32,000 bases of DNA, taken from Propionibacterium ruminifibrarum (GTDB taxonomy: Bacteria; Actinomycetota; Actinomycetes; Propionibacteriales; Propionibacteriaceae). Positions 1 through 18,644 of this stretch are shown here, in pieces (the stretch's first letter is position 1; the number at the start of each line of letters is the position of its first letter). The notes below the pieces were generated by a model. The model was given only the letters and a program-made list of their open reading frames with translations. It was not told the origin of the DNA and made no database searches. Location of the stretch: NCBI RefSeq assembly GCF_900289195.1, contig NZ_OMOH01000005.1, forward strand, positions 150,001-182,000. Reading direction: 5' to 3'. The translations under genes and the position numbers were made by a program.

Positions 1-131
1 CGGACGTCGCGCCACCTGCCAACTCGGCAGCGATGGACGAGGCAGAAGAGGATTTCCTTACCTTGTTGAGGAAACTCGAGTCTAACCAGATCACCCCCGA
101 ACAGGCCATCGGCAAGGGAGAAGTCAAGTGA
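1..131 (+). CDS. 3' end (last ~42 codons) of an upstream ORF truncated by the window edge; acidic helical tail, possibly the docking tail of a preceding PKS/NRPS-type subunit
   Basis: The frame starting at position 3 reads DVAPPANSAAMDEAEEDFLTLLRKLESNQITPEQAIGKGEVK, then TGA at 129-131. This TGA overlaps the GTG start (128-130) of the PKS (GTGA coupling). No catalytic motif is visible, so the product is inferred from context only. Confidence 0.5.
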   Translation, partial: DVAPPANSAAMDEAEEDFLTLLRKLESNQITPEQAIGKGEVK

Positions 132-3100
132 GTACGGATTTTCGTCATGAGCTGATGGACATGGTGTATAGAGGAGAGATCAGCGCTGAACAGGCTGCTG
201 CTATGTTGCCACGGGCCGGGAAACCATTGCCAGCGAGAAGCGGCGAGGACGTCGCGGTCGTCGGGATGTCGGGACGTTTTCCGGGTGCAGACGATGTCGA
301 CGAATTCTGGCGGCTGATCGAGCAGCAACGCTCCGCCATCGTGGATGTGCGTTCCCGATGGCCGCAGATCGCGGAACTCCTCGACTCCGCCTCCCGCAGT
401 GGGCACGCCTACAGCCACTGGGGCGCCCTGATGAACAGCATCACCGACTTCGATCCGGCGTTCTTCGATCTGTCGCCTCGGCAGGCGCAGTTGATGGAAC
501 CGCGCCAGCGGTTGTTGCTCATGGAGGCCTGGCGTGCGATCGAGGAAGCTGGGTACTCTAGGGCTGAACTCGACGGTCGCAATTGCGGCGTATTCATCGG
601 CTGTGAGGGTAGCTCGGACTATTTCCACGACATGCGGTTCGACCGCATGGACGGAAATGTCGTGCTAGGACACTCGAATTCCGTACTGGCGGCGAGGCTC
701 TCATACTTCATGAATCTCACCGGCCCAACGATGAGCATCGACACGGCATGCTCGTCCTCATTGGTGGCCATCCACTTGGCGTGTCGTTCGCTTCTCGACG
801 GGACATGCGACATGGCCCTCACCGGTGGGGTCACGGTCATGTATTCCATGGCCGATCAACTGCTCCAGTCAGACATGGGCATGCTGTCGCCGACCGGACG
901 ATGCGCGACTTTCGACGTGGGCGCGGATGGCTTCGTGCCTGCAGAGGCAGCAGCCGTGCTGGTGCTGAAGAGGTTGTCGGACGCGGTCCGTGACGACGAC
1001 CACATCCATGGGATCATCCGCGCCACCGCCATCAACCAGGACGGCAAGACGAACGGCATCACAGCCCCCAGCGCACTGTCCCAGGAACGCTTGATCAGGG
1101 ATGCATGGCGGTCGGGACACGCAGACCTGTCGACAATGAGGTACATCGAGGCACATGGGACGGGAACGCCGCTGGGTGATCCGATCGAAGTCGACGCCTT
1201 GGTGCGGACCTATGGAGGACTGAGCGCCTCGGGGCGGATCGGTGTCGGGTCGGTCAAGACGAACGTTGGTCATGCCGGGGCAGCTTCGGGTGTCATGTCC
1301 ATGGTCAAGGTCCTCATGGCGATGAGGCACGGTGACATCCCCGCGAGCATCAATCTCACAGAGGTCAACCCCCGTATTCGACTGGAAGGCTCCAGTCTGC
1401 ACATTGTCAGAGACCTGGAGCCCCTGTACCTGGATGATGGGGAGGCTACCGTCGCGGTCAGCTCCTTCGGCTACAGCGGGACGAACGCCCACATCATCGT
1501 CGAGTCAGCGAGACATCTTGCCACCCCCGTGAACGGGGGTGGTCTGGAGGCTCCCGATTTGCCGTTGACGTTGTTTCTTTCCGCAGCCTCTGAGCAGGCA
1601 CTTCTGGACCTGTGCTCCGCGTATGACCGGTGGTTGGCGACGCACGGTGAGGGTTTAGATCTTCTCCAGCTGTGCATCCAGTCCTTGGTCACTAGGACCC
1701 AGATGCGGTACCGAGTGGCTGTCGAGTTCACCAACCTCGCCGAGTTGCAGGACGGCCTCCGGTGCGTTGACGGCTCTATGATCACCAGGGCCATGCGACA
1801 CGTCGACGCCCAGGACCTAGTCATTGTCGACCGACTGATCGCCGCTATGAAGCCGCCGAAGGGGGATCGCCACGGGCTGGCACGCCTGATGAACCGGCTG
1901 GTCACGACTTGGTCCCACGGAGTGGATGGTGACTACTTGGTGTTGCGTGCCTACACCGGGCGTCGGCTCAGTCTGCCCACTTACCGGTTCTCGCACGCGA
2001 CCTATGAGCTCGAATCGGACGACTTGGTCGCGGGAGAGCACGTCCGGGCGCTGCCGACCGGTGCGGACGCGCCTGTCTCCCCCCGGATACGTCGAACAGA
2101 TGACGGCTCCGGGTTTGAGTTCGAGATGTCCGGTGATGACTTCTACGTGCGTGACCACACACATGTCGTTCCTGCCGCGGTTCACTTGGAGATGATCGTG
2201 CAGGGTGCTGCGCATCTGGATCCTGATCGCCCGGTGACATCCATACGTAACGTCATGCTCATGCGTCACGTTGACGTGCCAGCCGGTGAAACTGTCACGG
2301 TCAGGTTGGACGTGGCGAGAATTGCCGACGACCGCATCCGGTTGGTCATCGGTTCGGGATACGGGCAGGATTACGGGCCATGCGTATCGGCCGAGGTCGT
2401 CTACGGAGACCGTGCCCGGGCCACTCCGCCCGGTGTGGCATCTCACGCCGACGCCTATCCCGAACCCGATGCAATTGCTGTTGGTGCCTACCGAGATTAT
2501 CTCGACCAGTGCAATGCCAGCGTGGGCCCGACCTTCCGAGGCGTCAGGACGCTCGCACTTGGGCCGGACGATGCGTTAGTGCACATGGACCCGAACGCCA
2601 GCGGGAATGATCTGAGTGGATTCATGCTCAATCCGACGCTGTTGGATGCTGGGTTCAGTGGCGCAGCGATCTGGGTGTGGGCAGCGCACCCGGAGGCCCA
2701 TGGTATCTACGTGCCGTTCTCGCTGGGGAGACTGGATCTGGTCAACCCATCGCTGCACCCGGTAGCCATTCGCATCCACCAAGCACGACCTGCCACCGGT
2801 GGTGACGTCCAGACTGTCGGATACAATCTTGATTACCTCTCGGACAGTGGCGACGTAGTCTGGCACATAGAGAATTTCTTCCTTCGCCGACTGGCGTCTC
2901 CGACGGTTGATGATCCATCTGATCTTGGCGTGTTGGCGGTGCGGGAGACCTGGCGCCGCAACCCAGGGCGAGCGTCCTGTGCCTCGGCACTGGTGGTGCT
3001 GAGTACCCTAGACAGACTGGGGCAGGCCCGTGAGATCGTCTCCGCCAACGGCGGCGCGCATGTCCTGATCAGCGTCGATGGATCCTGGAGCCCGGCCCAC

Positions 3101-6100
3101 GATGATGTGGTCTTCCTTGATGACCTCACCGAGGATGAACTGGCCGAGGCGCTGATTCCCGGCGTCGATTCTGATCTTGCAGTAGTGGCCCTCCCGATGC
3201 GTCCTCGGGTTGGTGGGGACCCGGCGCCAGGGCAGCAGACCTCCTGTGTTCTGCGTGTCGTCAGGAATCTCTTGAAGAACCAGCCGAACAGAATCACCGA
3301 CGTCATCACCACGACCTACGGTGATCCCGCCGAACTTGCCCTGGCAGGCTTCCTACGTACCATGCATGTCGAGAACTCCTGCTATCGTGGCCACGTTCTT
3401 CGCGCCGACGCCGACGATCTCGTCACGGCAGTGTGTGACGAGCTGGGGAACGCCAGCGCGTCGAGCGAGGTACAGCGCCGCGACGGTGTGCGGTACGAAC
3501 TGACCCCGCAGATTGCCCCAGACTTCCATGTTCGTCCGGAGGCCGAGGACCGCATCCGGGGCGGCGCTTTCCTCATCACAGGAGGAACCGGTGCGCTCGG
3601 CATGGTCCTCACCCGACATCTGCTCGATCACGGGGCCGATGTGGTGATCGTGAGCGGACGCTCCCATACGGTAGCATCCCGCATCGCCGAACCAGCCATG
3701 AACGCCAAGAGTGAATACCTCCAGTGGGATGTGAGCGGTACAGGACTGACAGCCGGAGTGACGGCGGACATCCGCCGAATCCTGTCCAAGCACGGCCACG
3801 ACGCCTTGACAGGCGTTTTCCATGCAGCGGGGGTCATTCACGATGGCGTGATCGCAGCCAAGGACGATGACGTCTTTCTGGCCACAGTCGCCCCCAAGAT
3901 GTGGGGCACTGACCATGTCATCGAAGTGGCTCGTGCCTGCGGCGCGGAGTTCGTCCTGCTCTTCTCGTCGACTGCAGCAGCCCTCGGCAACCCCGGCCAG
4001 TCTGACTATGCCTACGGAAATCGCTACATGGATGCGGTGGCGGCCAACCAGGACGAGGCATCCCTTCCGAAGATCCAGTCCGTGAACTGGACCATCTGGG
4101 CTGGCGACACCGGCATGACTGTCCCGAAGGCGCAGGCGCGGCTGATGGAGGAGCGCTTCGGCATCGTGCCCCTACCGGTGGACCAAGGGTTGTCGGTGCT
4201 CAATGCTGTGGTTGCATCAGGCGAGCGACGAGTGACGATCCTCTATGGACATCCCATGCTGATGCAGAAACGGCTGCTGGCAACCACCGAGCCGGAAGCC
4301 CTGGTAAGCATGTCCCTCCCCGCGAGGGAGGACACTGACCCCGCACTGGACGCCATGCTCGTGGCGGACTTGCGTGAAATCGTCGGAGTGGCCCTGCGGA
4401 TATCCCCCTCTGAGATCGATTTCGATGAGGATATGGCGCGCTTCGGATTCGACTCTATCTCTTTTTCTGGCTTGGCGAACACGCTTAACCAAAAATTCTC
4501 GCTCGACATGACCCCGGCAGTTTTTTTCAAGTATTCGAGCCTTGGTGAACTCAAGGACGACATGCTGGCGGAGTACCGGCAGGAACTCGAATCCCATTAC
4601 GCTCAGCAGGAGGCGTCTGACTGGACGCCGTCACAACTCTCTGATCACGGTACAGGAAACGTCGGGCAGCCTGCCCCGGCTTTCGCAGCGGCGAGGCGAT
4701 CGGCGGGCGTGCAACTCGCCGATGGCGCTCCCCTCCGGCCGCCCGACAACGAACCGATCGCCATCATCGGCATGTCTGCCCGGCTGCCGGGCTCGGATTC
4801 GATCGATGAATTTTGGGATCACCTGATGGCCGGAGATGATCTGATCAGCGAGATACCGGCTGACAGATGGGACTGGCGTGCCCACTACGGCGATACCAGC
4901 AAGGATAGGACGAAGACGCGATTTCACCACGGTGGTTTCATGAAGCGGATCGACACCTTCGACCCGTACTTCTTCGGCATCGCAGGGGTGGACGCGGAAG
5001 TCATGGATCCCCAGGAGCGGATGGTGCTCGAGGAGAGCTGGCATGCTCTCGAAGACGCGGGAATCGTGCCCGCTGCTCTGGCCGGCGGTGAGACGGGCGT
5101 GTTCGTGGGGGTCTCTACGGGCGACTACCAGGAACTGCTGATCCGGGACGCATACCCCAACATGCTAACCCAGACCATGATCCCGAACAGGGTCTCGTTC
5201 ACTCTCAACCTCCACGGTCCCAGCGAAGTGGTGGATACAGCCTGCTCGAGCACATTGGTCGCGTTGCACCGCGCTGCGTCAGCGATTCGATCGGGACGAT
5301 GCGAGATGGCGCTTGCCGGCGGTGTGAACGTAATCTGCTCTCCCGGCATGTACGTGACCCAGGGGCGTATGAACATGTTGTCGCCGGACGGTCGATGCAA
5401 GACCTTTGATGCCGCAGCAGACGGTTACGTCCGGGGTGAGGGCTGCGGCATATTCGTCCTCAAATCTCTCAGCGCGGCCGAGCGTGATCACGATAGGATC
5501 CTAGGTGTCATCAGGGGTTCTGCAGTGAACCACGGCGGAGCTGCCACCAATTTGTTTGCCCCCAATGAGGCCGCCCAGGTGCAAGTCATCCGCCGTGCTC
5601 ACGAAGGGATCGGAATCGCTCCGGACGAGGTTGCCTATATCGAGGCACACGGAACCGGGACGGTGCTGGGCGATCCGATCGAAGTCAACGCCTTGATCGG
5701 TGCCTACCGTGAACTCTACGAGGCGGCGGGGCTCCGATTCGACGGAGACGCAGCTGACGTTTACCTTGGCGCCGTGAAGACCAACACGGGGCACTTAGAG
5801 GCGGCTGCTGCCGTGCCCGGCCTAGTGAAGATCCTGCGATCCTTCCAGGCGGGGTTCATACCCCGCAACATCCACTTCACATCCATGAACCCGTACCTCC
5901 GGTTGGCTGGCACCCCGATCAAGCTGGCTAATGATCCGATCGCCTGGGGCTCGATCACCGCCGATCCCCGAAGGCAGCGGCCGGTGGCGGCCATCAGTTC
6001 CTTTGGTATCGGGGGAGTGAACTGTCACCTTGTGCTGGAGGCGCCGCCGCGCGATCCCGACGTGTCACCGGTCCGGGCCGAAGGTCCGTTCGTGCTGCCG

Positions 6101-8101
6101 GTTTCGGCTCGTACCGAGTCTCAACTGGTGGACTACGTGAACGAAATCCGTGGCTTTGCGCTGGCGCATATGGCCAACGACTCTGGGAAGAACCTATTCG
6201 AGCAGGTCAGCGCACGCTGCATGCAACTGCTCGGCGTCACATCCGCCGACGAGTTGGACATGGGTGTCTCACTGATCGACTACGGCGTGAGCCCGACGGA
6301 TCTGGCTGGGATGGACGATGGCATAGTGGCTCTCGACCCCAGGATGACTCTGGCGGACGTGGCCGCCCTGCCAGCATGTAGCGCGTCGCATTCTCAGGGC
6401 AGCGGAGCGGATCTGCTTGCTGACGTGTGCGAGACTTTCCGCGTCGGAAGAACCAGGTTCAACAACAGAGTGGCTTTCGTCGTCAGGGATATTAAGGAAC
6501 TGGTGGATCAATGCGGCGCCCACTTGGCTGCAGAAGGCACCGCTGGCGTCCTTGAGCCGGACCCGGCGACACCGGTCGAGCGGCAGGCACGCGCGTGGGT
6601 CGCTGGCGATGATTCGGCCCTTCAACCGATCCCCGGAGCGAGCCGGATATCTGCTCCCTGCTATCCGTTCGAGGAGCAGCGCTTCTGGTACACGGATTAT
6701 CAGCTTGATTCCGGGTCGGCGCAGGGCCGCGCGACCGATGCCGAGGACGTCTGTCCAACCGCGGGGGCGCAGGCTGTCACCTCGTCGGTGTCGATGAGCG
6801 AGGGTGGCCTCGGGATCAGAAGCAGGGTCTTGGCAAGCCTGTGCCACGTACTAAAGATCCCCGCCGAGCAGGTGGCAGATGACGAGCCGTTTGCATCCTA
6901 CGGACTCGACTCGATCAAGCTGATCCAGTTCGCAGATGAGCTGGCGCGCCAACTCAACCACGATGTAGATCCGGTTGTCCTCCTCGACTATCCAAGTCTG
7001 GGAACCCTTGCCCAGTATTTCGAGGCGCTAGAGGTTGTCTACTCGGATGCCCCACACGGCCAGGAAATCGTGGCCACGTCGGGACAGACCGAGATGATGC
7101 CGCCACCTCTCGGTCACGGAGTCATCCTCAGGCTGCCGGAACTGATCGTTCTCCACGCTGCCAAGGAGTTCGACCGACAAATGATGGTTTCGTTCTGGCG
7201 CGAACTGGCCGATGGGGAGATCGGGCACATTGACATGGTTCCGTGCGGCCCGGACGGTCTCGAGGGAATGCGTCGTAAAGGGCTCTGTTATGTTCACTGC
7301 CTCACCAGAGACGCTAAAGGTAGGCTGGCCGAGGCTTGGGTCGGCGGGCAGGGAGAGGAAACACTGCTGATCATCAATGGGATCGGCGTCGCCCCTTCCT
7401 TCGCGTCCCCGCAGATTGCGGGGTTTGCTGGTGGGCGACGCATCGTGTGTCTATCGATGCCGGGAGTCGGTTTGACTCCGATGATCGACGATCTCTCATT
7501 GGCTAGCCTGGCAGAATGGGTGCTGTCGAGCCTTGACGCGCTGCAAATCGAGCGATTCGACGTGCTCGGGGTCTCTTGGGGCTCCCTGCTGGCCACGACA
7601 CTCGCGTGGACAGCGCCAAAACGAGTCCAGCGACTCGTCCTGGAGTCGCCGAACGCTGACATGGGCGAGGTGGAGAACGCGACGAACTATGTCGAGGATC
7701 TCGCCACGGTCATGAACGCGGACTTTGCGATGGCGACCGGATCCCACGACGAGGCCGCCAGACTGTTCACCGATGCCAAGTGCTTCGAGCTGAGAGCCTT
7801 CCTGCGATGGAGCGACTACTTCGCGGTGAACAGCCCGTCGCGTCACGAAGTGCTCTCGCTGTTACCTGAGATTCACCAGCCCGTGCTCGTGATCACCGGG
7901 GACCGGGACACGATCACTCCAGCGCGGGAGTCTGACCTTGTCGCCCTCTATCTGAAGAACGCGCGGGTTCACACGGTCTACGGGGCATCGCATCTTCCAT
8001 CCGCCACGCACCCGAATGAGTTCAACACGGTGGTCACCGCTTTCTTGTGCGATCCCGACGCCATGCTTGGGTTCGCATCTGGTGACCAAGTTCACGAATA
8101 G
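128..8101 (+). CDS. Type I modular polyketide synthase, AT-less (trans-AT type), 2657 aa: KS-DH(noncanonical)-KR-ACP-KS-ACP-alpha/beta-hydrolase
   Basis: Single uninterrupted ORF with a GTG start coupled to the upstream stop and TAG at 8099-8101. Two complete KS domains carry Cys-His-His triads. There are a Rossmann TGGTGALG KR, two carrier domains (GFDSIS, GLDSIK) and a C-terminal GVSWG hydrolase. No GHSxG/AFHS acyltransferase motif occurs anywhere, and the post-KS linkers are too short to hold an AT. Confidence 0.97.
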   Translation: MSTDFRHELMDMVYRGEISAEQAAAMLPRAGKPLPARSGEDVAVVGMSGRFPGADDVDEFWRLIEQQRSAIVDVRSRWPQIAELLDSASRSGHAYSHWGALMNSITDFDPAFFDLSPRQAQLMEPRQRLLLMEAWRAIEEAGYSRAELDGRNCGVFIGCEGSSDYFHDMRFDRMDGNVVLGHSNSVLAARLSYFMNLTGPTMSIDTACSSSLVAIHLACRSLLDGTCDMALTGGVTVMYSMADQLLQSDMGMLSPTGRCATFDVGADGFVPAEAAAVLVLKRLSDAVRDDDHIHGIIRATAINQDGKTNGITAPSALSQERLIRDAWRSGHADLSTMRYIEAHGTGTPLGDPIEVDALVRTYGGLSASGRIGVGSVKTNVGHAGAASGVMSMVKVLMAMRHGDIPASINLTEVNPRIRLEGSSLHIVRDLEPLYLDDGEATVAVSSFGYSGTNAHIIVESARHLATPVNGGGLEAPDLPLTLFLSAASEQALLDLCSAYDRWLATHGEGLDLLQLCIQSLVTRTQMRYRVAVEFTNLAELQDGLRCVDGSMITRAMRHVDAQDLVIVDRLIAAMKPPKGDRHGLARLMNRLVTTWSHGVDGDYLVLRAYTGRRLSLPTYRFSHATYELESDDLVAGEHVRALPTGADAPVSPRIRRTDDGSGFEFEMSGDDFYVRDHTHVVPAAVHLEMIVQGAAHLDPDRPVTSIRNVMLMRHVDVPAGETVTVRLDVARIADDRIRLVIGSGYGQDYGPCVSAEVVYGDRARATPPGVASHADAYPEPDAIAVGAYRDYLDQCNASVGPTFRGVRTLALGPDDALVHMDPNASGNDLSGFMLNPTLLDAGFSGAAIWVWAAHPEAHGIYVPFSLGRLDLVNPSLHPVAIRIHQARPATGGDVQTVGYNLDYLSDSGDVVWHIENFFLRRLASPTVDDPSDLGVLAVRETWRRNPGRASCASALVVLSTLDRLGQAREIVSANGGAHVLISVDGSWSPAHDDVVFLDDLTEDELAEALIPGVDSDLAVVALPMRPRVGGDPAPGQQTSCVLRVVRNLLKNQPNRITDVITTTYGDPAELALAGFLRTMHVENSCYRGHVLRADADDLVTAVCDELGNASASSEVQRRDGVRYELTPQIAPDFHVRPEAEDRIRGGAFLITGGTGALGMVLTRHLLDHGADVVIVSGRSHTVASRIAEPAMNAKSEYLQWDVSGTGLTAGVTADIRRILSKHGHDALTGVFHAAGVIHDGVIAAKDDDVFLATVAPKMWGTDHVIEVARACGAEFVLLFSSTAAALGNPGQSDYAYGNRYMDAVAANQDEASLPKIQSVNWTIWAGDTGMTVPKAQARLMEERFGIVPLPVDQGLSVLNAVVASGERRVTILYGHPMLMQKRLLATTEPEALVSMSLPAREDTDPALDAMLVADLREIVGVALRISPSEIDFDEDMARFGFDSISFSGLANTLNQKFSLDMTPAVFFKYSSLGELKDDMLAEYRQELESHYAQQEASDWTPSQLSDHGTGNVGQPAPAFAAARRSAGVQLADGAPLRPPDNEPIAIIGMSARLPGSDSIDEFWDHLMAGDDLISEIPADRWDWRAHYGDTSKDRTKTRFHHGGFMKRIDTFDPYFFGIAGVDAEVMDPQERMVLEESWHALEDAGIVPAALAGGETGVFVGVSTGDYQELLIRDAYPNMLTQTMIPNRVSFTLNLHGPSEVVDTACSSTLVALHRAASAIRSGRCEMALAGGVNVICSPGMYVTQGRMNMLSPDGRCKTFDAAADGYVRGEGCGIFVLKSLSAAERDHDRILGVIRGSAVNHGGAATNLFAPNEAAQVQVIRRAHEGIGIAPDEVAYIEAHGTGTVLGDPIEVNALIGAYRELYEAAGLRFDGDAADVYLGAVKTNTGHLEAAAAVPGLVKILRSFQAGFIPRNIHFTSMNPYLRLAGTPIKLANDPIAWGSITADPRRQRPVAAISSFGIGGVNCHLVLEAPPRDPDVSPVRAEGPFVLPVSARTESQLVDYVNEIRGFALAHMANDSGKNLFEQVSARCMQLLGVTSADELDMGVSLIDYGVSPTDLAGMDDGIVALDPRMTLADVAALPACSASHSQGSGADLLADVCETFRVGRTRFNNRVAFVVRDIKELVDQCGAHLAAEGTAGVLEPDPATPVERQARAWVAGDDSALQPIPGASRISAPCYPFEEQRFWYTDYQLDSGSAQGRATDAEDVCPTAGAQAVTSSVSMSEGGLGIRSRVLASLCHVLKIPAEQVADDEPFASYGLDSIKLIQFADELARQLNHDVDPVVLLDYPSLGTLAQYFEALEVVYSDAPHGQEIVATSGQTEMMPPPLGHGVILRLPELIVLHAAKEFDRQMMVSFWRELADGEIGHIDMVPCGPDGLEGMRRKGLCYVHCLTRDAKGRLAEAWVGGQGEETLLIINGIGVAPSFASPQIAGFAGGRRIVCLSMPGVGLTPMIDDLSLASLAEWVLSSLDALQIERFDVLGVSWGSLLATTLAWTAPKRVQRLVLESPNADMGEVENATNYVEDLATVMNADFAMATGSHDEAARLFTDAKCFELRAFLRWSDYFAVNSPSRHEVLSLLPEIHQPVLVITGDRDTITPARESDLVALYLKNARVHTVYGASHLPSATHPNEFNTVVTAFLCDPDAMLGFASGDQVHE
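248..1507 (+). other. PKS domain KS1 (ketosynthase, predicted condensation-competent)
   Basis: aa ~41-460. Begins DVAVVGMSGRFPGA. Active-site DTACSSS has Cys208 (TGC at 749-751). EAHGTGTPLGDPIE supplies His343 and KTNVGHAG supplies His382. Confidence 0.9.
2075..2902 (+). other. PKS domain: double-hotdog dehydratase-like (DH/PS-DH fold) with noncanonical catalytic motifs
   Basis: aa ~650-925. FYVRDHTHVVPAAVHLEM stands where HxxxGxxxxP is expected; His677 is present, but the Gly is missing and the spacing is 4 residues shorter. The GPTF (YGPxF-like) motif lies at aa 800-803. LLDAGFS occupies the DxxxQ/H position, with Asp840 present and Ser instead of Gln/His. Confidence 0.6.
3560..4132 (+). 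other. PKS domain KR (ketoreductase catalytic subdomain); the structural subdomain probably spans ~2930-3560
   Basis: aa ~1145-1335. NADPH site FLITGGTGALG. HAAGVIHDG lies at the LDD position, with Asp retained, which suggests B-type stereochemistry. The catalytic region is SSTAAALGNPGQSDYAYGNRYMDA (Tyr1294, Asn1298). Confidence 0.85.
4340..4573 (+). other. PKS domain ACP1
   Basis: aa ~1405-1482. LVADLREIVGVALRISPSEIDFDEDMARFGFDSISFSGLANTL, with the phosphopantetheine Ser1443 (TCT at 4454-4456). Confidence 0.9.
4748..6043 (+). other. PKS domain KS2 (ketosynthase, predicted condensation-competent)
   Basis: aa ~1541-1972. Begins EPIAIIGMSARLPGS. DTACSSTL has Cys1706 (TGC at 5243-5245). EAHGTGTVLGDPIE supplies His1841 and KTNTGHLE supplies His1889. 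Confidence 0.9.
6809..7033 (+). other. PKS domain ACP2
   Basis: aa ~2228-2302. IRSRVLASLCHVLKIPAEQVADDEPFASYGLDSIKLIQFADEL, with Ser2262 (TCG at 6911-6913). Confidence 0.9.
7280..8062 (+). other. PKS C-terminal alpha/beta-hydrolase-fold domain (putative chain-release domain, not a classical type I TE sequence pattern)
   Basis: aa ~2385-2645. Oxyanion-region LLIINGIG. Nucleophile elbow GVSWG with Ser2483 (TCT at 7574-7576). VLVITGDRDTITP supplies the acid residue and GASHLP supplies His2622. Confidence 0.8.
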
Positions 8102-8114
8102 GAGACGCACTGAT

Positions 8115-10238
8115 ATGGTGAACGCATCGACGAGGGTCCGGCTGCTGTGCGCGGTAAACGGTGATTTCTATTCCCACGTCGCCAGGGTCCTGGCCATCGC
8201 TTTGAGATTGCGGGAATATCCTCAATTTGACATCGCATTCTCCGGCAGTGGACGTTTCATGTCCCTCGTCGAGGACCAGGGGTTTGAGGTTCTGGTGACA
8301 GACCATCTCACCGTCGAGGAGGTGGTAGAGAAGTCGGATGAGCGTGGAATTCATTGGTACGACGACCCGGTCCGCCTTGACGCGCTGTTCGCTGCCGAAC
8401 AGGAGGTGTTCGACCGTTGGCGACCTGATGTGTGCCTGAGAGACAACTTCCGCGATCCGGCCAGCGTAGTTGCTCATATGCGCGGGGTCTTGGATATCAT
8501 GATTATCCAGGCTAGCCAGACCGACGCCTACCGGTTCGATTTCATTCCCATCAACTATGATCTGACCGGAGGGGAGGATCAGAAGGAGGCGATGCCAGGC
8601 CTGGTTAGGCTGGCACGCCGAAACGTCTATGCCCCGCTTTACGCAAAAGCCCGAGAGATGGGATTGTCCCCCGAATGCTGTCAGGATTTTGGCGCGGCGG
8701 CGGACTTGTATCTAGTTGCTGACAGCTATTGCCTCTTCCCGATTAAGCCGAGTTCTGGTCACTACGAGCACGTCGGGCCCTTGTGGTACATCAATGCCCA
8801 GGCCAGGCCAGTCTGGCTCGAGGAATTCAGTAACTCGCCTCTGGACCGTTTTCTTATTGCGACCGGATCCACAGGAACTACCAGTTTCGATGAGTTCTTC
8901 CGTCAAGTTGATCCCCAACACGACACATACGCGCTGGCTTTCACTGATGAGGTTCCCCCGCCTTTCTTCGGGGGGTCACCGTCGATCACGAGCACCGTTC
9001 TTCCGCATTGTGATCTGATCGTAAGCGACGGGGGACTTGGTGCCACCTATATGGCCCTCTATGCGGCTAAGCCTACAGTCGCGATCTTCGACCGGTTCGA
9101 ACAACAAGCCAATAGTAGAGCCTTGGAACGGCTTGGCGTGGGGATCGGTTTCGGGATCGGCACGTTGGGCCCCGATGACTTGGTGTGTGCAACGCAGACT
9201 CTCTTGCGGAACCCCGTGGTTGCCTCACAGCTACGGAAAGCTCAACAACGACTGCTCGACGAGCCGGAAGGTGCTCGCTTTGCGGCCATGCTGGTGGCGC
9301 GTGAGTGCGCCCGGCACGCGTCATGGGCTTCGGAGTTCTTGGCTCCCGTGATAGCGGATCTCGAAGAAGAATCCCGGAGCCATCGTCTGGGCGATGAACC
9401 ATGGGTTGCGGCATTAGTTGCAGATTCCTGCTGGTCGGCCGACGGGCGAGGTGACGCAGCGCTCCAGTTCTCCAGCTACCGTGCAGCGCCCAAAGCACCG
9501 GTACTCGACTTCAGGCTCGATGTCGGCCATGTGATAGCGATTGTCGCACAATCGACGGAGGTGGCTGATCGAATCGTAACGGGGCTCGAGGGACGGGGCG
9601 CGGCTGAGGAGGGAAGCGTGACCTTGTTTGGCACGCCGGTGCATGTTGGCGAAACCACGGTGGTGGAACTCGAGTCTCCGACATCGGGGGCACGCGTGGT
9701 CCAGCTCGGTTCCCAACCACTATTCCGGGATGGCCTGCTCACCGGGGCCGACACCGCTGATCGGCTTCTGCTGGTGGTGACCGACGATGACGTTCATGAT
9801 GAAAGGACACTCGCGGAGATCGCCCAGCAGATGGCTCAGTTGCGTGACGATGACACAGCGGTGCTGCTGGTCACAACATCTCCACGTCTCGCGGAAATGT
9901 CCGCCGACGAGGTGGTGCTGGTCGCCCCTGACCATGCTCTCGGACCGGCAGAATCCCGGCGCATCGTGGCTAGATACTGTCCAGGTAGCATCGTGTCCTG
10001 GCATCCGTCCGGGCCGATGCAGGTCGTCGTCCGACACGCGCTCGAGGGGCGTCCTGAGTTCATCGACACGTCCGGGAAGTCGGCCTGCATCACCGACGAC
10101 GTCGCCGGATTCATCAAGCAGCTCGAGATGGCTGGTGCGCGTCAAGGACTTGCATTGGACGAACTGACCATTCGTGCAGCGCATCTCGATGACGTCTACG
10201 CCCTTCTGTTCCCGCCCACGCAGGCAGGTGACCGATGA
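8115..10238 (+). CDS. Fusion protein: N-terminal GT-B (GT1/MGT-like) glycosyltransferase plus a C-terminal degenerate ABC-type ATPase (DrrA/ABC-2-like NBD with a DUF4162-like tail)
   Basis: ATG at 8115 lies 10 nt after AGGAG (8100-8104) and 13 nt after the PKS stop. The N-terminus RVRLLCAVNGDFYSHVARVLAIALRLRE..FDIAFSG is a GT-B N-lobe. The C-lobe signature is LPHCDLIVSDGGLGATYMALYAAKPTVAIFDRFEQQANSRALERLGVG. From aa ~480 (ORF-track numbering) the sequence aligns to ABC NBDs. GHVIAIVAQSTEVADRIVTGLEG replaces the Walker A segment GxxGxGKT/S. LLLVVTDDD and AVLLVTTSPRLAEMSADEVVLV stand for Walker B and the H-loop region. No LSGG signature is present. The tail LTIRAAHLDDVYALLF resembles the sLEDVFl ending of DrrA-type ATPases. 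Confidence 0.85.
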   Translation: MVNASTRVRLLCAVNGDFYSHVARVLAIALRLREYPQFDIAFSGSGRFMSLVEDQGFEVLVTDHLTVEEVVEKSDERGIHWYDDPVRLDALFAAEQEVFDRWRPDVCLRDNFRDPASVVAHMRGVLDIMIIQASQTDAYRFDFIPINYDLTGGEDQKEAMPGLVRLARRNVYAPLYAKAREMGLSPECCQDFGAAADLYLVADSYCLFPIKPSSGHYEHVGPLWYINAQARPVWLEEFSNSPLDRFLIATGSTGTTSFDEFFRQVDPQHDTYALAFTDEVPPPFFGGSPSITSTVLPHCDLIVSDGGLGATYMALYAAKPTVAIFDRFEQQANSRALERLGVGIGFGIGTLGPDDLVCATQTLLRNPVVASQLRKAQQRLLDEPEGARFAAMLVARECARHASWASEFLAPVIADLEEESRSHRLGDEPWVAALVADSCWSADGRGDAALQFSSYRAAPKAPVLDFRLDVGHVIAIVAQSTEVADRIVTGLEGRGAAEEGSVTLFGTPVHVGETTVVELESPTSGARVVQLGSQPLFRDGLLTGADTADRLLLVVTDDDVHDERTLAEIAQQMAQLRDDDTAVLLVTTSPRLAEMSADEVVLVAPDHALGPAESRRIVARYCPGSIVSWHPSGPMQVVVRHALEGRPEFIDTSGKSACITDDVAGFIKQLEMAGARQGLALDELTIRAAHLDDVYALLFPPTQAGDR

Positions 10239-10246
10239 CGACTATA

Positions 10247-10288
10247 GTTTCTTTGCCATCTGTTTCAAAGAAACCGTCGGCGTTTTTT
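10247..10288 (+). promoter_or_regulatory. AT-rich 9-bp hairpin followed 8 nt later by a T6 run, lying between the GT-fusion gene and the ligase gene (weak terminator or attenuator candidate)
   Basis: GTTTCTTTG (10247-10255) pairs perfectly with CAAAGAAAC (10266-10274) across a 10-nt loop. TTTTTT lies at 10283-10288. This is unusual AT-rich structure in a GC-rich locus. Confidence 0.3.
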
Positions 10289-10316
10289 GCCAACTCGTTC
10301 GGGAAAGGCCATCCCG

Positions 10317-11924
10317 ATGAGCATCGTTGATCTTCTGAGGAAGAACGCCCGTGAAATCGGCGAACAGTGTGCTCTCGTTGAATTGGACGTAGATGTCAGG
10401 ACCCAGTGGGTCCCGGAGGAGCCATCGGGCTGGCGTCATAACCTGGCGGCTTGGTGTGTCCGTCGTGAACTGAGCTGGTCAGAGTTCAACCAGCTTTCCA
10501 ACCAATGGGCTGGTTTCCTCATGACTCGCGGAATCAGCACGGGTGACCGCGTCGGGATCCTTATGCTCAACGGGATCGAGTGGCTACCCGTCTACTTCGG
10601 AGTTCTCAAGGCAGGGGCGGTTGTCGTCCCGCTGAACTTCCGTTATGAATCAGCGGAGATCGACTACTGCCTCGAACTCGCAGAAGTCAAGGCTCTCGTG
10701 TTTGGCTCGGAATTCACTGCCAGACTCGCTGAGACCCAATCGGCCCGTGAAGGGCGGTGCGCGATGCTCATGGTGGGCGGTCCGTGTCCGGAGTTCGCAG
10801 AGCCATTCGTTGGGGATCCGTCCGCCGTTGACCCCTGCATTCTCACCGATCCTTCCGACGATGCAGCCATCTATTTCTCAAGCGGCACGACGGGTTTCCC
10901 TAAAGCGATCCTTCATTGCCATTCAGCCCTGATTCACGCTGCGCGGGCCGAGCAGAATCACCACTCCCAGACAGGCGACGACGTCTTCCTGTGTATTCCA
11001 CCTCTGTACCACGCCGGCGCGAAGATGCATTGGTTCGGGAGTCTGCTCACAGGCGGACGGTGTGTGTTGCTGCGTGGAGTGACCCCATGGTCGATCCTAG
11101 CAGCGGTCAGCGCTGAGAAATGCACCATCGTGTGGCTGCTGGTTCCATGGGCGCAGGACATCCTGCTGGCCATCGAACGGGGAGAACTCGATCCTGCAGC
11201 GCATGAACTGGACCAGTGGCGGCTTATGCATATCGGTGCTCAACCGGTTCCAGAGAACCTCATCTGGAGATGGCAGGAGACTTTCCCAAATCAACGCTAT
11301 GACACGAACTACGGTTTGACCGAGGCTACAGGTCCCGGGTGTGTCCATCTCGGCGTCGACAACGTCGACCACGCGGGAGCTATAGGGCGCGCAGGATATG
11401 GATGGCGGACCAAGGTGGTCGATGATTGCGGTCGCGATGTGGTGCGGGGGCAGCGTGGCGAACTCGCAGTCCGTGGCCCCGGGGTTATGAAGGGCTACTT
11501 CAAGGATGAGACCGCCACACGGGCGGTTCTCGATTCCGACGGGTGGCTCCTGACCGGAGATATCGTTGAGGAAGATCCCGATGGTTTCCTGTGGCTCGTA
11601 GATAGGAAGAAGGATGTGATCATCAGCGGGGGTGAGAACATCTACCCTGGGCAGATCGAGCGATTCTTAGCGGGGGACCCGCGGGTCAAAGATGTCGCAC
11701 TGATAGGTCTTCCCGATGAGCGCCTCGGAGAGGTTGCGGCTGCAGTCGTGGAGGTGAAGCCTGATGTTGTGCTCACTTCAACAGACGTATTCGCCTTGTG
11801 TGAGGAATTGCCGCGCTACAAGCGTCCGCGGCACATCATCTTTGCCCCAGTCATCAGGAACGGAACGGGAAAGATTGATAAACCTGCCTTGAGAGCCATG
11901 TACGCCCATTCAGATGGTTTCTGA
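10317..11924 (+). CDS. AMP-dependent synthetase/ligase (ANL superfamily; acyl-CoA synthetase-like)
   Basis: ATG at 10317 is preceded by GGGAAAGG; the track start at 10287 is a TTG and is less likely. Core motifs present: YFSSGTTGFPKA (A3), YGLTEA (A5), GWLLTGD (A7), DRKKDVIISGGENIYP (A8) and GKIDKPALR (A10 Lys). No obvious FAAL-type insertion was seen. Confidence 0.9.
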   Translation: MSIVDLLRKNAREIGEQCALVELDVDVRTQWVPEEPSGWRHNLAAWCVRRELSWSEFNQLSNQWAGFLMTRGISTGDRVGILMLNGIEWLPVYFGVLKAGAVVVPLNFRYESAEIDYCLELAEVKALVFGSEFTARLAETQSAREGRCAMLMVGGPCPEFAEPFVGDPSAVDPCILTDPSDDAAIYFSSGTTGFPKAILHCHSALIHAARAEQNHHSQTGDDVFLCIPPLYHAGAKMHWFGSLLTGGRCVLLRGVTPWSILAAVSAEKCTIVWLLVPWAQDILLAIERGELDPAAHELDQWRLMHIGAQPVPENLIWRWQETFPNQRYDTNYGLTEATGPGCVHLGVDNVDHAGAIGRAGYGWRTKVVDDCGRDVVRGQRGELAVRGPGVMKGYFKDETATRAVLDSDGWLLTGDIVEEDPDGFLWLVDRKKDVIISGGENIYPGQIERFLAGDPRVKDVALIGLPDERLGEVAAAVVEVKPDVVLTSTDVFALCEELPRYKRPRHIIFAPVIRNGTGKIDKPALRAMYAHSDGF

Positions 11925-11950
11925 TTATGGTGGTCCCGAGTAAAATGAGG

Positions 11951-11969
11951 CTCCATCGTGTCGGTGGAG
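11951..11969 (+). terminator. Short hairpin after the ligase gene (possible terminator or IS-end structure)
   Basis: CTCCATCG / CGGTGGAG forms an 8-bp stem (one G-U pair) with a 3-nt loop, 27 nt after the stop. There is no U tract. Confidence 0.25.
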
Positions 11970-12065
11970 CGATTAGGTCATCGTCAAGGCCTTGTCGATC
12001 TGGATGTGGATCTTAGCCTTGAAATCCAGCGGGTTAAAGCGTTCGATCTGATTCGTACCAGTTGA

Positions 12066-12331
12066 AAGATGATGACCGACCATGGGATTCTCCAATCCGT
12101 GGGCCGGATCGGTAGCTGCTTCGACAATGCCGCTGCCGAGTCCTTCAATGCGATCCTGAAGAACGAACTCGTGAACCGTAAGGTCTACCCGACCCGTCAG
12201 TACGCAGCCCAGGACGTGACAGCCTGGATCGAGTACGACTCGATCGCAAACGCCTCCACTCGGCCATCGATTACCAGACTCCCAACCAAGTCGATACCGA
12301 ATGGAGGCAACACCAGCAGACAGCAGCCTAA
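12066..12331 (+). mobile_element. IS3-family transposase (OrfB/integrase-core) C-terminal remnant, 5'-truncated and frameshifted (pseudogene)
   Basis: DHGILQSVGRIGSCFDNAAAESFNAILKNELVNRKVYPTRQYAAQDVTAWIEY matches the conserved ..G...S.G..G.C.DNA.AESF...LK.E. block of IS3 transposases. The expected continuation RKRLHSAIDYQTPNQVDTEWRQHQQTAA* is found only in the -1 frame from 12245 (TAA at 12329-12331). No N-terminal or DDE part is present. A possible right end ...CACTCCA lies near 12372. Confidence 0.75.
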
Positions 12332-12404
12332 ACCAACCATTAACCACTGTCCGAAAAACCTATATCACTCCAGAGTTTTGCATAACCCTCCTGGTTCTTC
12401 ATTG

Positions 12405-12535
12405 CTGAACGTCAAGCTATCCACCGCAGCACCTTCACCTCGGTGGCAAGGGCCGCAGTTCATCACTGGCTGGGACAAACGCAAACATCCATTCGTATGG
12501 ACAAAACCCTCGACAGAATCAACTGGAAAGGTAAG
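12405..12535 (+). mobile_element. IS630/Tc1-mariner-family transposase extreme C-terminal remnant (pseudogene fragment)
   Basis: QFITGWDKRKHPFVWTK (about 12456-12506) matches the conserved FI..WN....PF.WTK tail of IS630-family transposases. Nothing upstream resembles the catalytic domain. Confidence 0.55.
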
Positions 12536-12657
12536 TATGCCTCAACTACAGGATACACTTGGATCGTGTTCGCCTGCTCGCCTATGCTCTCTTGCGACGA
12601 CCGATCCCGTCCGGCCCACGACGTCCGGAACGGTTCCAGCACGTCAAGGAGACTCAG

Positions 12658-13194
12658 ATGACCTCTCGCCGAATCCCTCTTCTCGCCCGGCTCGGCCTGC
12701 CCGCCATCGCCCTGGCCCTTGTCACCGGCTGCGCACCCAGCGCCAGTACCGCGATGGTCATTGACGACGTGACGGTCTCCGAGAACCACCTCGACGCCCT
12801 CACCGAGGGGTGCTCCGAGGCCCTCGACATAGCCGGTCTCGGCGGCCAGTACCCAGACGGTGAGGTGCGCCGGAACGTCGCCTCCTGGGTCGCGCAGGGC
12901 CTCATGGCCGACGCCCTCATCGAGCGCGCCAACATCACCGTCTCCGACAGTGAGCTCCAGGAGGCCCGTGCCGGGCTGAGGAACTCCGAGCTGTTCACCA
13001 CCACCGCCAACTGCACCGACGCCTTCATGGGCATCGTCAAGCTCACCGCCTACGTCTCCATGGAGGGTGAGGCCACCGCTCTCGCCCAGGCCGCCGACGT
13101 CGAGGTCGAGATCAACCCCAGGTACGGCACCTGGGATCTCGACGAACTCACCATCGAGGGCACCGGTTCGCTGTCCTCACGCAGTGAGAGCTGA
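12658..13194 (+). CDS. Lipoprotein, SurA-N-terminal-domain-like (function uncertain)
   Basis: ATG at 12658 lies 8 nt after AAGGAG (12644-12649). The signal peptide has a lipobox: MTSRRIPLLARLGLPAIALALVTGC. The stop TGA (13192-13194) overlaps the mazG ATG by 1 nt. Confidence 0.8.
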   Translation: MTSRRIPLLARLGLPAIALALVTGCAPSASTAMVIDDVTVSENHLDALTEGCSEALDIAGLGGQYPDGEVRRNVASWVAQGLMADALIERANITVSDSELQEARAGLRNSELFTTTANCTDAFMGIVKLTAYVSMEGEATALAQAADVEVEINPRYGTWDLDELTIEGTGSLSSRSES

Positions 13195-13832
13195 TGGTCG
13201 CTGAGGACCCCGAACCCAGGGGCGCCCAGTTCGAGCGCCTCGTGCAGGTGATGGACCGGCTGCGGGTCGACTGCCCGTGGGATGCCGCGCAGACGCACCG
13301 CAGCCTCGTCAAGCACCTCATCGAGGAGTCCGCCGAACTGGTCGACGCCATCGAGACCGGCAGCGACGAGGACCTGCGCGAGGAACTCGGGGACGTCCTC
13401 ATGCAGGTGGTCTTCCACGCCAGGCTCGCCGAGGAGGACGGGCTCTTCACCATCGACGACGTCGCCGCCGCCATCGCCGACAAGCTGGTGCGGCGCCATC
13501 CCCACGTCTTCGCCGGCGAGGACACCCCGGACGACCTGGACACCCTCTGGGAGGTGCGCAAGCGCGCCGCCAAGCGCCGGGACTCCTGCCTGGACGGCAT
13601 CGCCGAGTCCCTGCCGACCCTGGCCCGTGCGGCGAAGACGGCCCAGCGCCTGGACAACGGGGGACCGGACCAGGTGCCGTTCGCCGACGAACCGATCACC
13701 GCCGAGGAGGCCGGTACACAAGTCCTTTTGCTGGTGCAAAGAGCCCAGGCGAGCGGCGTCGACATCGACCAAGCCGTTCGTGACGCCACCCGAGCCTGGG
13801 AGGACACTATCAGGGACGCTGAGAAATCCTAG
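13194..13832 (+). CDS. mazG: Nucleoside triphosphate pyrophosphohydrolase MazG
   Basis: FERLVQVMDRLRVDCPWDAAQTHRSLVKHLIEESAELVDAIE...LREELGDVLMQVVFHARLAEE...KLVRRHPHVF is the typical MazG EExxE/D motif context. The position upstream of eno matches actinobacterial synteny. Confidence 0.92.
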   Translation: MVAEDPEPRGAQFERLVQVMDRLRVDCPWDAAQTHRSLVKHLIEESAELVDAIETGSDEDLREELGDVLMQVVFHARLAEEDGLFTIDDVAAAIADKLVRRHPHVFAGEDTPDDLDTLWEVRKRAAKRRDSCLDGIAESLPTLARAAKTAQRLDNGGPDQVPFADEPITAEEAGTQVLLLVQRAQASGVDIDQAVRDATRAWEDTIRDAEKS

Positions 13833-13846
13833 GCGGGCCCGAGCCG

Positions 13847-13864
13847 GCGCACCGTCCGGTGCGC
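13847..13864 (+). terminator. Hairpin after mazG
   Basis: GCGCACC-GTCC-GGTGCGC, a 7-bp GC stem, lies 15 nt after the TAG. There is no U tract, which is common in high-GC actinobacteria. Confidence 0.35.
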
Positions 13865-13874
13865 GGACGCAGCC

Positions 13875-13935
13875 TTGACATTGTGTGAATTTGCTGATTT
13901 CGTTTAGTTATTCGCATATGCAAATGAAAGGAGGC
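13875..13935 (+). promoter_or_regulatory. AT-rich putative promoter/RBS region for the downstream lipoprotein gene
   Basis: A perfect TTGACA lies at 13875-13880 in a locally AT-rich stretch. The 8-bp palindrome GCATATGC lies at 13914-13921. The RBS AAAGGAGG (13927-13934) lies 5 nt before ATG 13940. No convincing -10 hexamer could be fixed. Confidence 0.35.
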
Positions 13936-13939
13936 TGCC

Positions 13940-14677
13940 ATGGCTCGCATCCCGGCCCTCATCCTCGGTCTCGGCGTGTCCACTCTGCTTCTCGTCAGCG
14001 CCTGCCTCGGCCCCACCGACAACGACTCCCAGACCGGTGCGGACGCATCCACGGCCGCCCGGTCCGCCTCCTCCGCGTTCGTCTCGCCCGCCGGCTCCAG
14101 CGGTACCGCCTCGCCGAGCCGTTCGGCGTCGAGCCCGGTCTCGTCCACGGCGTCCTCCAGCGCCTCGGGCGGCGCCGTGAGCGACGAGTACGAGGGCAAG
14201 CGCACCAACGACTTCCAACGCATCGCGGCCGACGAACTCGGCGGACTGCCCCAGCGCCGTCTCAAGAGCGACCCGCCCAACCACGAGATGACCGTCCAGT
14301 ACGTCACGGGCGACTCCAGCCGCCAGATCTTCCTGCGCGCCTACTTCGCCGGCCAGAACGGTGAACTCGGCCCGGTCGCATCGGTCGACGATCCCTACTT
14401 CGACACCGTCGTCACCAGCGCACGCGACGCCTTCGTCGACGAGGGCGCCCCGGACGTCGTCATCCGTACCACCACGGTGCAGGGCCTGGAGTGGAGCTGC
14501 GCCGAGGGCATCAACCCGACCAAGAACATCCACCGCGGGCTGTGCGCCACCGTCAAGTACGGCCGCGTCATCGAGATCCAGCCCACGCAGGTCGGCCCCG
14601 ACGCCGACGGAGCCACGAGCCGGGCCTGGGACGACCAGATCATGAACGAGGTCAGCGCACTCGTCAACGCGCTGTGA
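13940..14677 (+). CDS. Lipoprotein with Ser/Ala-rich linker (unknown function; occupies the position of lpqU in M. tuberculosis synteny)
   Basis: Signal peptide plus lipobox MARIPALILGLGVSTLLLVSAC. The low-complexity linker is SASSAFVSPAGSSGTASPSRSASSPVSSTASSSASGG. A strong RBS is present. Confidence 0.85.
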   Translation: MARIPALILGLGVSTLLLVSACLGPTDNDSQTGADASTAARSASSAFVSPAGSSGTASPSRSASSPVSSTASSSASGGAVSDEYEGKRTNDFQRIAADELGGLPQRRLKSDPPNHEMTVQYVTGDSSRQIFLRAYFAGQNGELGPVASVDDPYFDTVVTSARDAFVDEGAPDVVIRTTTVQGLEWSCAEGINPTKNIHRGLCATVKYGRVIEIQPTQVGPDADGATSRAWDDQIMNEVSALVNAL

Positions 14678-14781
14678 ACCGCCGCCCTCATCGTCGGCCG
14701 CCCTCCGTCTCGCCTGATGAGCGCCCCAGGAACCATGGCTCGGGCCGGTGGTGAACCGATAGGATTGGCGCGCGAGAGTGA

Positions 14782-16119
<1,338 letters not shown>

Positions 16120-16164
16120 ATGTCCTGGACGGCCAGGTGCACTGACCTGACCGGCCCCTGATCC

Positions 16165-16194
16165 GGAGGGCGGCGCCCCACGGTGCCGCCCTCC
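16165..16194 (+). terminator. Strong GC hairpin downstream of eno
   Basis: GGAGGGCGGC (16165-16174) pairs perfectly with GCCGCCCTCC (16185-16194). The stem can extend by 3 more pairs around a 4-nt loop. There is no U tract. Confidence 0.5.
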
Positions 16195-16308
16195 GACCAT
16201 GCCCTGGACCGGTGCCCTGACTCGTGCCCCGGGCCACCCCGGAAGAACCGTGCGAACCCATGACAGGCGAGGCCGCCACCAAGGGGACGGGCCGGCCGCG
16301 GGCCTACA

Positions 16309-16965: not shown

Positions 16966-17018
16966 GCCCACCCCCGGCGCGTGCCGGTCCTTCGCTCGCG
17001 CCGTGGAAGAATTGAACC

Positions 17019-18514: not shown

Positions 18515-18571
18515 GCCCGCTCAGACCGGACAGTGGGCTGCCGCCCGTCGTGGCCGATAGTCTTGGACGCG

Positions 18572-18644
18572 GCCCCCGTAGCCCAATGGCAGAGGCAGGC
18601 GGCTTAAACCCGCTCAAGTGCGAGTTCGACTCTCGCCGGGGGCA
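18572..18644 (+). tRNA. tRNA, anticodon UAA (nominally Leu/UUA) but with class I architecture (5-nt variable loop)
   Basis: 73-nt cloverleaf. Acceptor GCCCCCG/CGGGGGC. D arm GCC(C)-AAUGGCAG-(A)GGC. Anticodon stem GGCGG/CCGCU with loop CUUAAAC (anticodon at 18605-18607). Variable loop CAAGU. T arm GCGAG-UUCGACU-CUCGC. Discriminator A. CCA is not encoded. Confidence 0.85.

Follow-up and report, generated by a model that had tools for sequence, protein, structure and literature searches.

A probable horizontally acquired ~72-kb trans-AT polyketide synthase island, bordered by insertion sequences, next to the mazG-eno core block of Propionibacterium ruminifibrarum

The 32,000-nucleotide stretch of Propionibacterium ruminifibrarum DNA examined here (NCBI RefSeq assembly GCF_900289195.1, contig NZ_OMOH01000005.1, positions 150,001 to 182,000 of the forward strand; hereafter the window) joins polyketide synthase (PKS) genes to a conserved block of chromosomal core genes. 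Our analysis identifies window 1-12553, with a probability that we put at about 0.87, as the right end of a ~72.4-kb, horizontally acquired, orphan PKS island of the trans-acyltransferase (trans-AT) type that is bounded by insertion sequences (IS). A first-pass annotation had proposed a horizontally acquired biosynthetic island at this position from the sequence of the window alone, and that proposal is upheld by a break in composition together with an orthologous locus that is empty in five related taxa.

The composition break coincides with the change in gene content. GC content is 0.602 over window 1-12553 and 0.695 over 12554-32000, with sliding values of 0.54-0.63 as far as ~12.5 kb that then rise to 0.65-0.73, a mean GC count per 60-nt line of 36.1 to the left against 41.7 to the right (Mann-Whitney p = 1.6e-44), and a best single change point at 12683. 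The spot counts from which the first-pass annotation had argued (32/60 GC at 8161-8220, 42/60 at 13261-13320) are exact, and the shift in codon usage that it had noted in the left part, TTA codons included, is equally real, as both GC content at third codon positions (GC3) and the share of A/T-ending codons change sharply at the boundary. GC3 is 0.72 in the complete PKS gene and 0.65 in each of the two genes that follow it, encoding a glycosyltransferase (GT) fusion and an ANL-superfamily ligase, and 0.84-0.93 in the core genes checked; codons ending in A or T make up 29.9% of the island and 9.7% of the core, synonymous-codon use is strongly heterogeneous between the two (chi2 = 813, df 41), and TTA occurs six times in the island genes of the window and once in the core genes checked. 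The left end of the island, which lies outside the window, has a GC content of 0.51-0.57 and a GC3 of 0.52-0.74 beside core genes at 0.90-0.96, and so composition and codon usage set the island apart from the host core at both ends (GC3 0.52-0.74 vs 0.84-0.96).

The genes themselves are those of an AT-less polyketide assembly line, and the content listed in the first-pass annotation (PKS, GT fusion, ANL ligase) was correctly read. The gene whose 3' end opens the window, and which had been expected to extend beyond it, encodes a 2840-aa PKS that starts ~8.4 kb to the left (called gene L001:1482-10004 on L001, a Logan contig of run ERR1938110 that matches window 1-12152 at 100% identity). The TGA that ends this gene shares bases, as GTGA, with the GTG that starts the gene for a 2657-aa PKS, and upstream of the 2840-aa gene comes a third PKS, of 3599 aa. 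In the 2657-aa terminal protein Pfam recognises two ketosynthase (KS) domains, a dehydratase (DH), a ketoreductase (KR), two PP-binding acyl carrier protein (ACP) domains and an Abhydrolase_1 domain, and finds no Acyl_transf_1; among the Pfam matches listed for the 2840-aa and 3599-aa proteins there is likewise no AT. The linkers that follow the KS domains of the terminal protein match the RhiE-like KS-MAT linker (48.6 bits) and the CurL-like PKS_C (60.2 bits) families, both above cutoff, and it is these post-KS linkers combined with the missing AT domain that give the trans-AT signature. The trans-acting AT predicted to lie left of the window is indeed present there, as a free-standing 316-aa Acyl_transf_1 protein inside the left end of the island (L106:16405-17355). 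AT-less modules, a free-standing AT in the cluster and linker remnants of AT docking are thus found together. Catalytic residues are retained throughout most of the terminal enzyme, including Cys-His-His in both KS domains, the DS(I)/DSI serine in both ACPs, GxSxG in the hydrolase and, in the KR, GGTGxLG and the catalytic Tyr region; the canonical HxxxGxxxxP motif is absent from the DH-like domain.

Full-length homologues of the terminal PKS are confined to a protein of Brooklawnia cerclae (47% identity; 2745 aa and colinear) and two proteins of uncultured organisms (46%), the remaining matches being generic trans-AT PKSs at ~30-40% identity and partial coverage. These three homologues belong to related clusters, located in Brooklawnia cerclae (JAAMOZ010000001.1, ~1.349-1.378 Mb; L022/L023) and on two Logan contigs (SRR29667955_1290, here L024, and SRR5709926_321, here L111), and in all three the last three PKS genes are colinear with those of the island at 41-51% identity. 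The likeness extends to the MacB-type ATPase (74% identical), a metallo-β-lactamase (MBL)-fold protein (56%) and, against the cluster on L111, the free-standing AT (49%). Another candidate, P0059, was rejected as an island PKS, being unrelated at 25% identity.

Downstream of the terminal PKS lies an unusual 707-aa protein in which ~430 N-terminal residues form a divergent GT1 domain resembling macrolide GTs and ~270 C-terminal residues form a degenerate DrrA-type ABC ATPase. On whole-protein score the GT falls well outside the macrolide-GT models, with 39.3 bits on TIGR01426 (MGT) against a cutoff of 260 and 28.9 bits on NF033129 against 700, and the match is limited to the C-terminal sugar-nucleotide-binding region. 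Its nearest solved structures in the PDB are Kcn28, YjiC and OleD. The domain is a GT1-fold relative from a rare family, of which 17 representatives at E<=1e-30 were found among 1.84 billion, only one other sharing the GT+ABC length and architecture. The whole fusion is 39% identical to the GT::DrrA protein of Brooklawnia, and the GT domain alone is 48-54% identical to those of the related clusters. The partner of this GT varies between clusters: it is a DrrA-type ABC ATPase in Brooklawnia (L022 18240-20540) and in L024 (18360-20654), whereas in L111 (8141-17722) the GT is fused instead to the C-terminus of the last PKS. In the relatives the DrrA partner scores 254 bits on TIGR01188 and is followed by an ABC-2 permease. 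In the window protein, by contrast, the Walker A, ABC signature (LSGGQ) and Walker B motifs, present in 3/3 orthologues, are all absent, the C-terminal domain has no ABC match in Pfam, NCBIfam or PDB, and similarity to the DrrA profile (27.8 bits) survives only in the C-terminal half of the ATPase domain; this half of the fusion is accordingly predicted to be catalytically dead. The ANL protein that follows, an acyl-CoA/acyl-ACP ligase, is securely placed in its superfamily by AMP-binding (242.3 bits) and AMP-binding_C (35.2 bits), both above cutoff. Its best NCBIfam model, long-chain fatty-acid-CoA ligase, gives 344 bits, below the cutoff of 476, and it reaches no specific NCBIfam equivalog cutoff; the ligases that occupy its position in the Brooklawnia, L024 and L111 clusters are 60-62% identical to it.

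The right edge of the island is marked by IS debris that begins 160 bp after the ANL ligase (Table 1). As the first-pass annotation had it, the debris consists of two unrelated, decayed transposase fragments. The IS3-family remnant is recognised by its integrase core and by tblastn against annotated IS3-family transposases (<=60% identity, E 6e-10). The IS630-family remnant comprises two tblastn segments corresponding to residues 251-293 of a 312-aa Rhodococcus IS630 transposase (joint E 2.7e-10), itself an open reading frame (ORF) scoring 208 bits on NCBIfam transpos_IS630; the segment QFITGWDKRKHPFVWTK is identical to it at 15/17 residues, and DNA identity to the Rhodococcus element is 80% over 81 bp. 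Only ~95 C-terminal codons of the IS3 and ~45 of the IS630 transposase survive, so that neither is an intact IS, and terminal inverted repeats were not found around either remnant. Promoter and terminator scans of the junction returned nothing, as did Rfam and tandem-repeat scans of the island part of the window.

Alignment to Propionibacterium australiense places the right junction at 12553/12554, and from 12555 on the DNA of the two species is 85-88% identical. The core block anticipated by the first-pass annotation follows, with mazG, eno, DivIC/FtsB, DUF501 and Ppx all confirmed; it starts, however, not with mazG but with the gene for a 178-aa lipoprotein, and the gene for a 245-aa lipoprotein also intervenes between mazG and eno. 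The 178-aa lipoprotein is 92% identical to its P. australiense counterpart and lies 3' of mfd in six Propionibacteriaceae taxa; for MazG the identity between the two species is 96%. An Mfd protein listed at NCBI under P. ruminifibrarum is matched at every residue by one encoded on a contig of run ERR1938110, other contigs of which are 100% identical to the window.

Table 1. Features of the island and of the adjoining core block. Coordinates are window positions unless a contig handle is given.
Feature	Coordinates	Strand	Evidence or remark
3' end of 2840-aa trans-AT PKS gene (last 42 codons + stop)	1..131	+	direct reading; Logan L001
Terminal PKS, 2657 aa, KS-DH-like-KR-ACP-KS-ACP-α/β-hydrolase (release domain), AT-less	128..8101	+	Pfam
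GT1::degenerate DrrA fusion, 707 aa	8115..10238	+	best start 8115; EryCIII-like_C Pfam match
ANL-superfamily acyl-CoA/acyl-ACP ligase, 535 aa	10317..11924	+	AMP-binding, AMP-binding_C
IS3-family transposase 3' remnant, integrase-core C-terminus only	12084..12377	+	rve_3 27.0 bits (cutoff 26.5); tblastn
IS630-family transposase 3' remnant, frameshifted, terminates at island/core junction	12392..12553	+	tblastn
First core bases; P. australiense mfd-lipoprotein spacer homology resumes (= L002:9360); includes ribosome-binding site of lipoprotein gene	12554..12657		blastn, pairwise alignment
178-aa lipoprotein gene, signal peptide + LVTGC lipobox, first core gene	12658..13194	+	GC3 0.84
mazG, 245-aa lipoprotein gene, eno, ftsB/divIC, DUF501, ppx	13194..18514	+	Pfam, translation, synteny; GC3 0.87-0.91
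Left end, in order from mfd: 398 bp of unknown origin, IS5-like element, accessory genes (opposite strand)	L106		

Both junctions of the island are carried by a single contig of the same species (ENA ERZ27247035 k141_7754, 123,450 bp; L017 and L106), on which the stop codon of mfd falls at about window -59,874 and the island covers about positions 32,270-104,726. Similarity to P. australiense ends 46 nt short of the mfd stop codon (L002:9270) and is picked up again at L002:9360 (window 12554); these left and right breakpoints give the length of ~72.4 kb. The 89 bp that the island replaces comprise the 46 terminal nt of mfd plus 43 nt of spacer, and Mfd of P. ruminifibrarum has gained a new nine-residue tail. 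Our reading of the island covers all but its middle ~30.7 kb (window about -49.9 to -19.2 kb). At the left border stands an IS5-like element with a DDE_Tnp_4 domain and 20-nt inverted repeats, split by an IS110, and mobility genes are thus present at both borders, in IS elements of four families. Beyond the element lie the accessory genes, which encode the free-standing AT, the MBL-fold protein, a phosphopantetheinyl transferase (PPTase), a discrete PksF-like KS that matches NCBIfam PRK07103 ('polyketide beta-ketoacyl:ACP synthase'), an ACP and a MacB-type ABC exporter.

The nested IS110 (L106 14326-15798) occurs in two ENA assemblies and is absent from a third (L107), in which the neighbouring IS sequence is only 83.5% identical; the difference means either that IS content varies between strains or that IS copies were cross-assembled. 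Two simple routes of entry were tried and rejected. The 398 bp between the truncated mfd and the left IS have no similarity to IS630 or IS3 that would mark them as the missing 5' part of either, which leaves insertion of the island into a pre-existing IS630 unsupported. A composite transposon was likewise discarded, as the elements at the two borders come from different families and L106, at the left junction, shows no similarity to the window by blastn.

A junction between low-GC PKS genes and a high-GC core could in principle be a chimera of two organisms created in assembly or binning. The short-read Logan assembly of ERR1938110 does break inside the IS debris (12152/12343, within the IS3 remnant), and several of the sequences that support the join are contigs from metagenomes. 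The 190-bp Logan gap nevertheless coincides with the IS3 remnant, a repeat, and the same PKS-GT-ANL-IS-lipoprotein-mazG arrangement recurs at 99.6-99.9% identity in five more assemblies, drawn from NCBI, ENA and JGI (99.6-100% over the six assemblies that hold the right junction), which argues that the join is no accident of assembly. The mfd junction is present on the same 123-kb contig and again on a second contig of 55.8 kb. We therefore attach a very low probability to a chimera.

Comparison of the mfd/mazG neighbourhood in related genomes, the check suggested with the first-pass annotation, found the locus without the island in 5/5 related taxa. In P. australiense, P. acidifaciens, P. cyclohexanicum and Brooklawnia cerclae mfd lies directly 5' of the lipoprotein gene, and in P. 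freudenreichii the two are parted solely by an IS481-type element in the same spacer (transposase gene of 347 aa with an rve domain, L113 9752-10795, CP010341.1), which suggests that mobile DNA has landed in the mfd-lipoprotein spacer repeatedly. The opposite view, in which the cluster is ancestral at this locus, was lost independently elsewhere and owes its low GC to gene-specific constraints, can appeal to the homologous cluster in a member of the same family, Brooklawnia cerclae, and to the evident instability of the spacer in P. freudenreichii. It would, however, require at least 3-4 independent, precise losses in place of one gain; the relatives with a clean mfd-lipoprotein junction include the sister species at 87-92% DNA identity, and the Brooklawnia cluster sits at another locus, 1.35 Mb from mfd. 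Nor is the low GC3 imposed by the proteins encoded, since the Brooklawnia orthologues have a host-like GC3 of 0.84-0.89. An ancestral origin is thus largely refuted, and we regard it as very improbable.

The homologous clusters also reveal how the right end of the island has changed. All three share the order PKS-PKS-PKS-GT-...-ANL with it, and in full run PKS-PKS-PKS, GT, DrrB-like permease, ANL, a 137-aa gene, an AT/enoyl-reductase gene, and accessory and exporter genes. Where the relatives have an intact DrrA ATPase and a DrrB permease, P. ruminifibrarum has the degenerate DrrA domain and no permease gene at the position after it; where the relatives continue 3' of ANL into the 137-aa gene, the AT/enoyl-reductase gene and the accessory operon, P. 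ruminifibrarum stops in IS debris. The genes expected there are found either at the opposite, far-left end and inverted (PPTase, MBL-fold protein, AT, exporter) or were not seen (137-aa and AT/enoyl-reductase genes). Because the genes 3' of ANL in the relatives are displaced or unseen, the debris at 11925-12553 is best read as marking both the edge of the island and a breakpoint of rearrangement, and the right end of the island looks rearranged or truncated relative to the three related clusters.

Such losses raise the question of whether the island was acquired but is now a decaying, non-producing remnant, stripped by IS activity of essential pathway parts at its right end, whose remaining ORFs are intact only because it arrived recently. 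In 3/3 relatives ANL is followed by the 137-aa and AT/enoyl-reductase genes where P. ruminifibrarum has IS debris; the DrrB gene is gone, DrrA has lost its Walker A, Walker B and signature motifs, and the DH-like domain lacks its canonical one. Set against this decay are three ORFs of 2657-3599 codons that run uninterrupted, the full set of KS, KR, ACP and hydrolase catalytic residues, an AT, PPTase and MacB-type exporter that the island has kept for itself, and island ORFs that are intact in every strain seen; the missing genes, moreover, may lie in the middle 30.7 kb. We consider decay to a silent remnant a serious though unlikely alternative, and the cluster may still be functional.

Several observations weigh against an acquired and still functional IS-bounded island. 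Besides the degenerate DrrA domain, the DrrB permease, 137-aa and AT/enoyl-reductase genes were not seen in the parts read. The closest homologues are just 46-62% identical and occur in higher-GC hosts, and no donor can therefore be named. No direct repeat or att-like sequence is common to both junctions, no integrase was seen in the 10 kb and 22 kb that were read, and no tRNA lies at either junction, the nearest being 11 kb and 6 kb away. The usual trio of tRNA, integrase and direct repeats is thus not found in the parts of the island read. Strain divergence, finally, is too low to test for purifying selection, with 3-5 single-nucleotide differences in 9 kb of the island part between strains, too few to inform dN/dS.

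Horizontal acquisition nevertheless offers the most coherent account of these data. The island would have entered once the species had parted from P. australiense, its donor being an unsampled organism of lower GC, and would have resided long enough for all sampled strains to share it, and too briefly for amelioration. IS activity may have driven the insertion, a later inversion and deletion, or both, moving the ACP/PPTase/MBL/AT operon to the far end in inverted orientation, with loss of the DrrB gene and decay of DrrA. In the pathway that we propose from domain content, at least three giant AT-less PKS genes (3599, 2840 and 2657 aa) run toward the window; the free-standing AT at the far left would supply their products in trans with malonyl units, and the PPTase encoded by the island itself would activate the carrier domains. 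The window PKS would contribute the last two modules, or extensions, followed by hydrolytic or cyclising release. The GT1 domain probably glycosylates the product, as a modification or for resistance, the MacB-type ABC system probably exports it, and the ANL ligase probably activates a carboxylic-acid substrate for use as a starter or in tailoring.

Parallels with known systems support parts of this scheme and mark its limits. The bacillaene (pks/bae) trans-AT clusters of Bacillus have AT-less megasynthases as the island does, along with discrete ACP and KS proteins and KS-linker remnants of the RhiE-like and CurL-like kind, and both place a free-standing AT beside an MBL-fold protein, an arrangement of the PksB/PksC kind. 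The likeness holds at the level of domains only, in an actinobacterial host, and the island differs in its GT and ANL genes and in release by an α/β-hydrolase (PF00561) rather than a PF00975 thioesterase; genes for HMG-CoA synthase and enoyl-CoA hydratase (ECH) were not seen in the island parts read. The colibactin pks island of Escherichia coli is likewise a large (50-70 kb) PKS block of atypical composition and patchy occurrence at the same locus. The colibactin island is tRNA-associated and carries a P4-type integrase and flanking direct repeats, whereas the borders of the Propionibacterium island carry unrelated IS elements, and tRNA target, integrase and repeats were not found in the parts read. 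Macrolide and anthracycline self-resistance (OleD/OleI with OleB/C; DrrAB) provides a third parallel, as the nearest solved relatives of the island GT include oleandomycin GTs and the ATPase to which it is fused in the relatives is of the DrrA subfamily, with an ABC-2 permease after it. Unlike in those systems, GT and ATPase form one polypeptide in Brooklawnia and L024, and the GT is joined to a PKS in L111; in the window, the ATPase half appears dead, the permease is gone and the GT scores far below the MGT cutoff (39 vs 260 bits).

The core DNA around the island yielded further observations of its own. The 245-aa lipoprotein gene between mazG and eno (13940-14677, +) encodes an LVSAC lipobox and a Ser-rich linker and belongs to no Pfam family; its product is 79% identical over 164 aa to one in P. 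australiense, and it was not detected between mazG and eno of P. freudenreichii, P. cyclohexanicum or Brooklawnia. Just 3' of ppx lies a tRNA-Leu gene with anticodon UAA (18572-18645, +), which decodes the rare TTA codon and is conserved in P. australiense (L002:15344-15419). The window carries an unbroken glyoxalase-family gene at 18663-19157 (-), as does ERR1938110 (128 aa called); two other assemblies of the species have separate 72- and 56-aa ORFs instead, and in the NCBI metagenome-assembled genome the gene is uncalled, which points to a strain-specific frameshift or deletion. Within the ~0.70 GC core, window 30001-31500 drops locally to 0.65 and holds a minus-strand ORF of 169-205 aa that belongs to no family and an FMN-reductase gene (30468-31136, GC3 0.81). 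On the other side of the island, two tandem amino-acid permease paralogues with ~80% DNA identity lie just 5' of mfd (L106 7094-9854), and the pair is also present in P. australiense and P. acidifaciens.

In summary, our work maps a genomic island whose assembly line has been met in only a handful of hosts. None of the related clusters has a known product, searches of the literature returned no account of PKS clusters from either P. ruminifibrarum or Brooklawnia, and we found no report in the searchable literature of trans-AT PKS pathways in Propionibacterium or Brooklawnia. We offer, as a tentative speculation, that P. ruminifibrarum, Brooklawnia cerclae and the two uncultured organisms could share an undescribed trans-AT polyketide family, that the product might be a glycosylated rumen antimicrobial, and that the GT::DrrA fusion might represent a new coupled 'glycosylate-and-pump' form of self-resistance, partly dismantled here after a swap to the MacB-type exporter. 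Biosynthetic gene clusters on genomic islands, and the enzymology encoded by this one, are well known, so that the island is more a useful addition to the catalogue than a surprise. It provides an example of acquisition with both junctions mapped to the base, gives chemists a small family of clusters for comparison and, as an apparently intact orphan trans-AT PKS pathway of ~72 kb in a Propionibacterium from the rumen that can be cultivated, presents a target for natural-product work.

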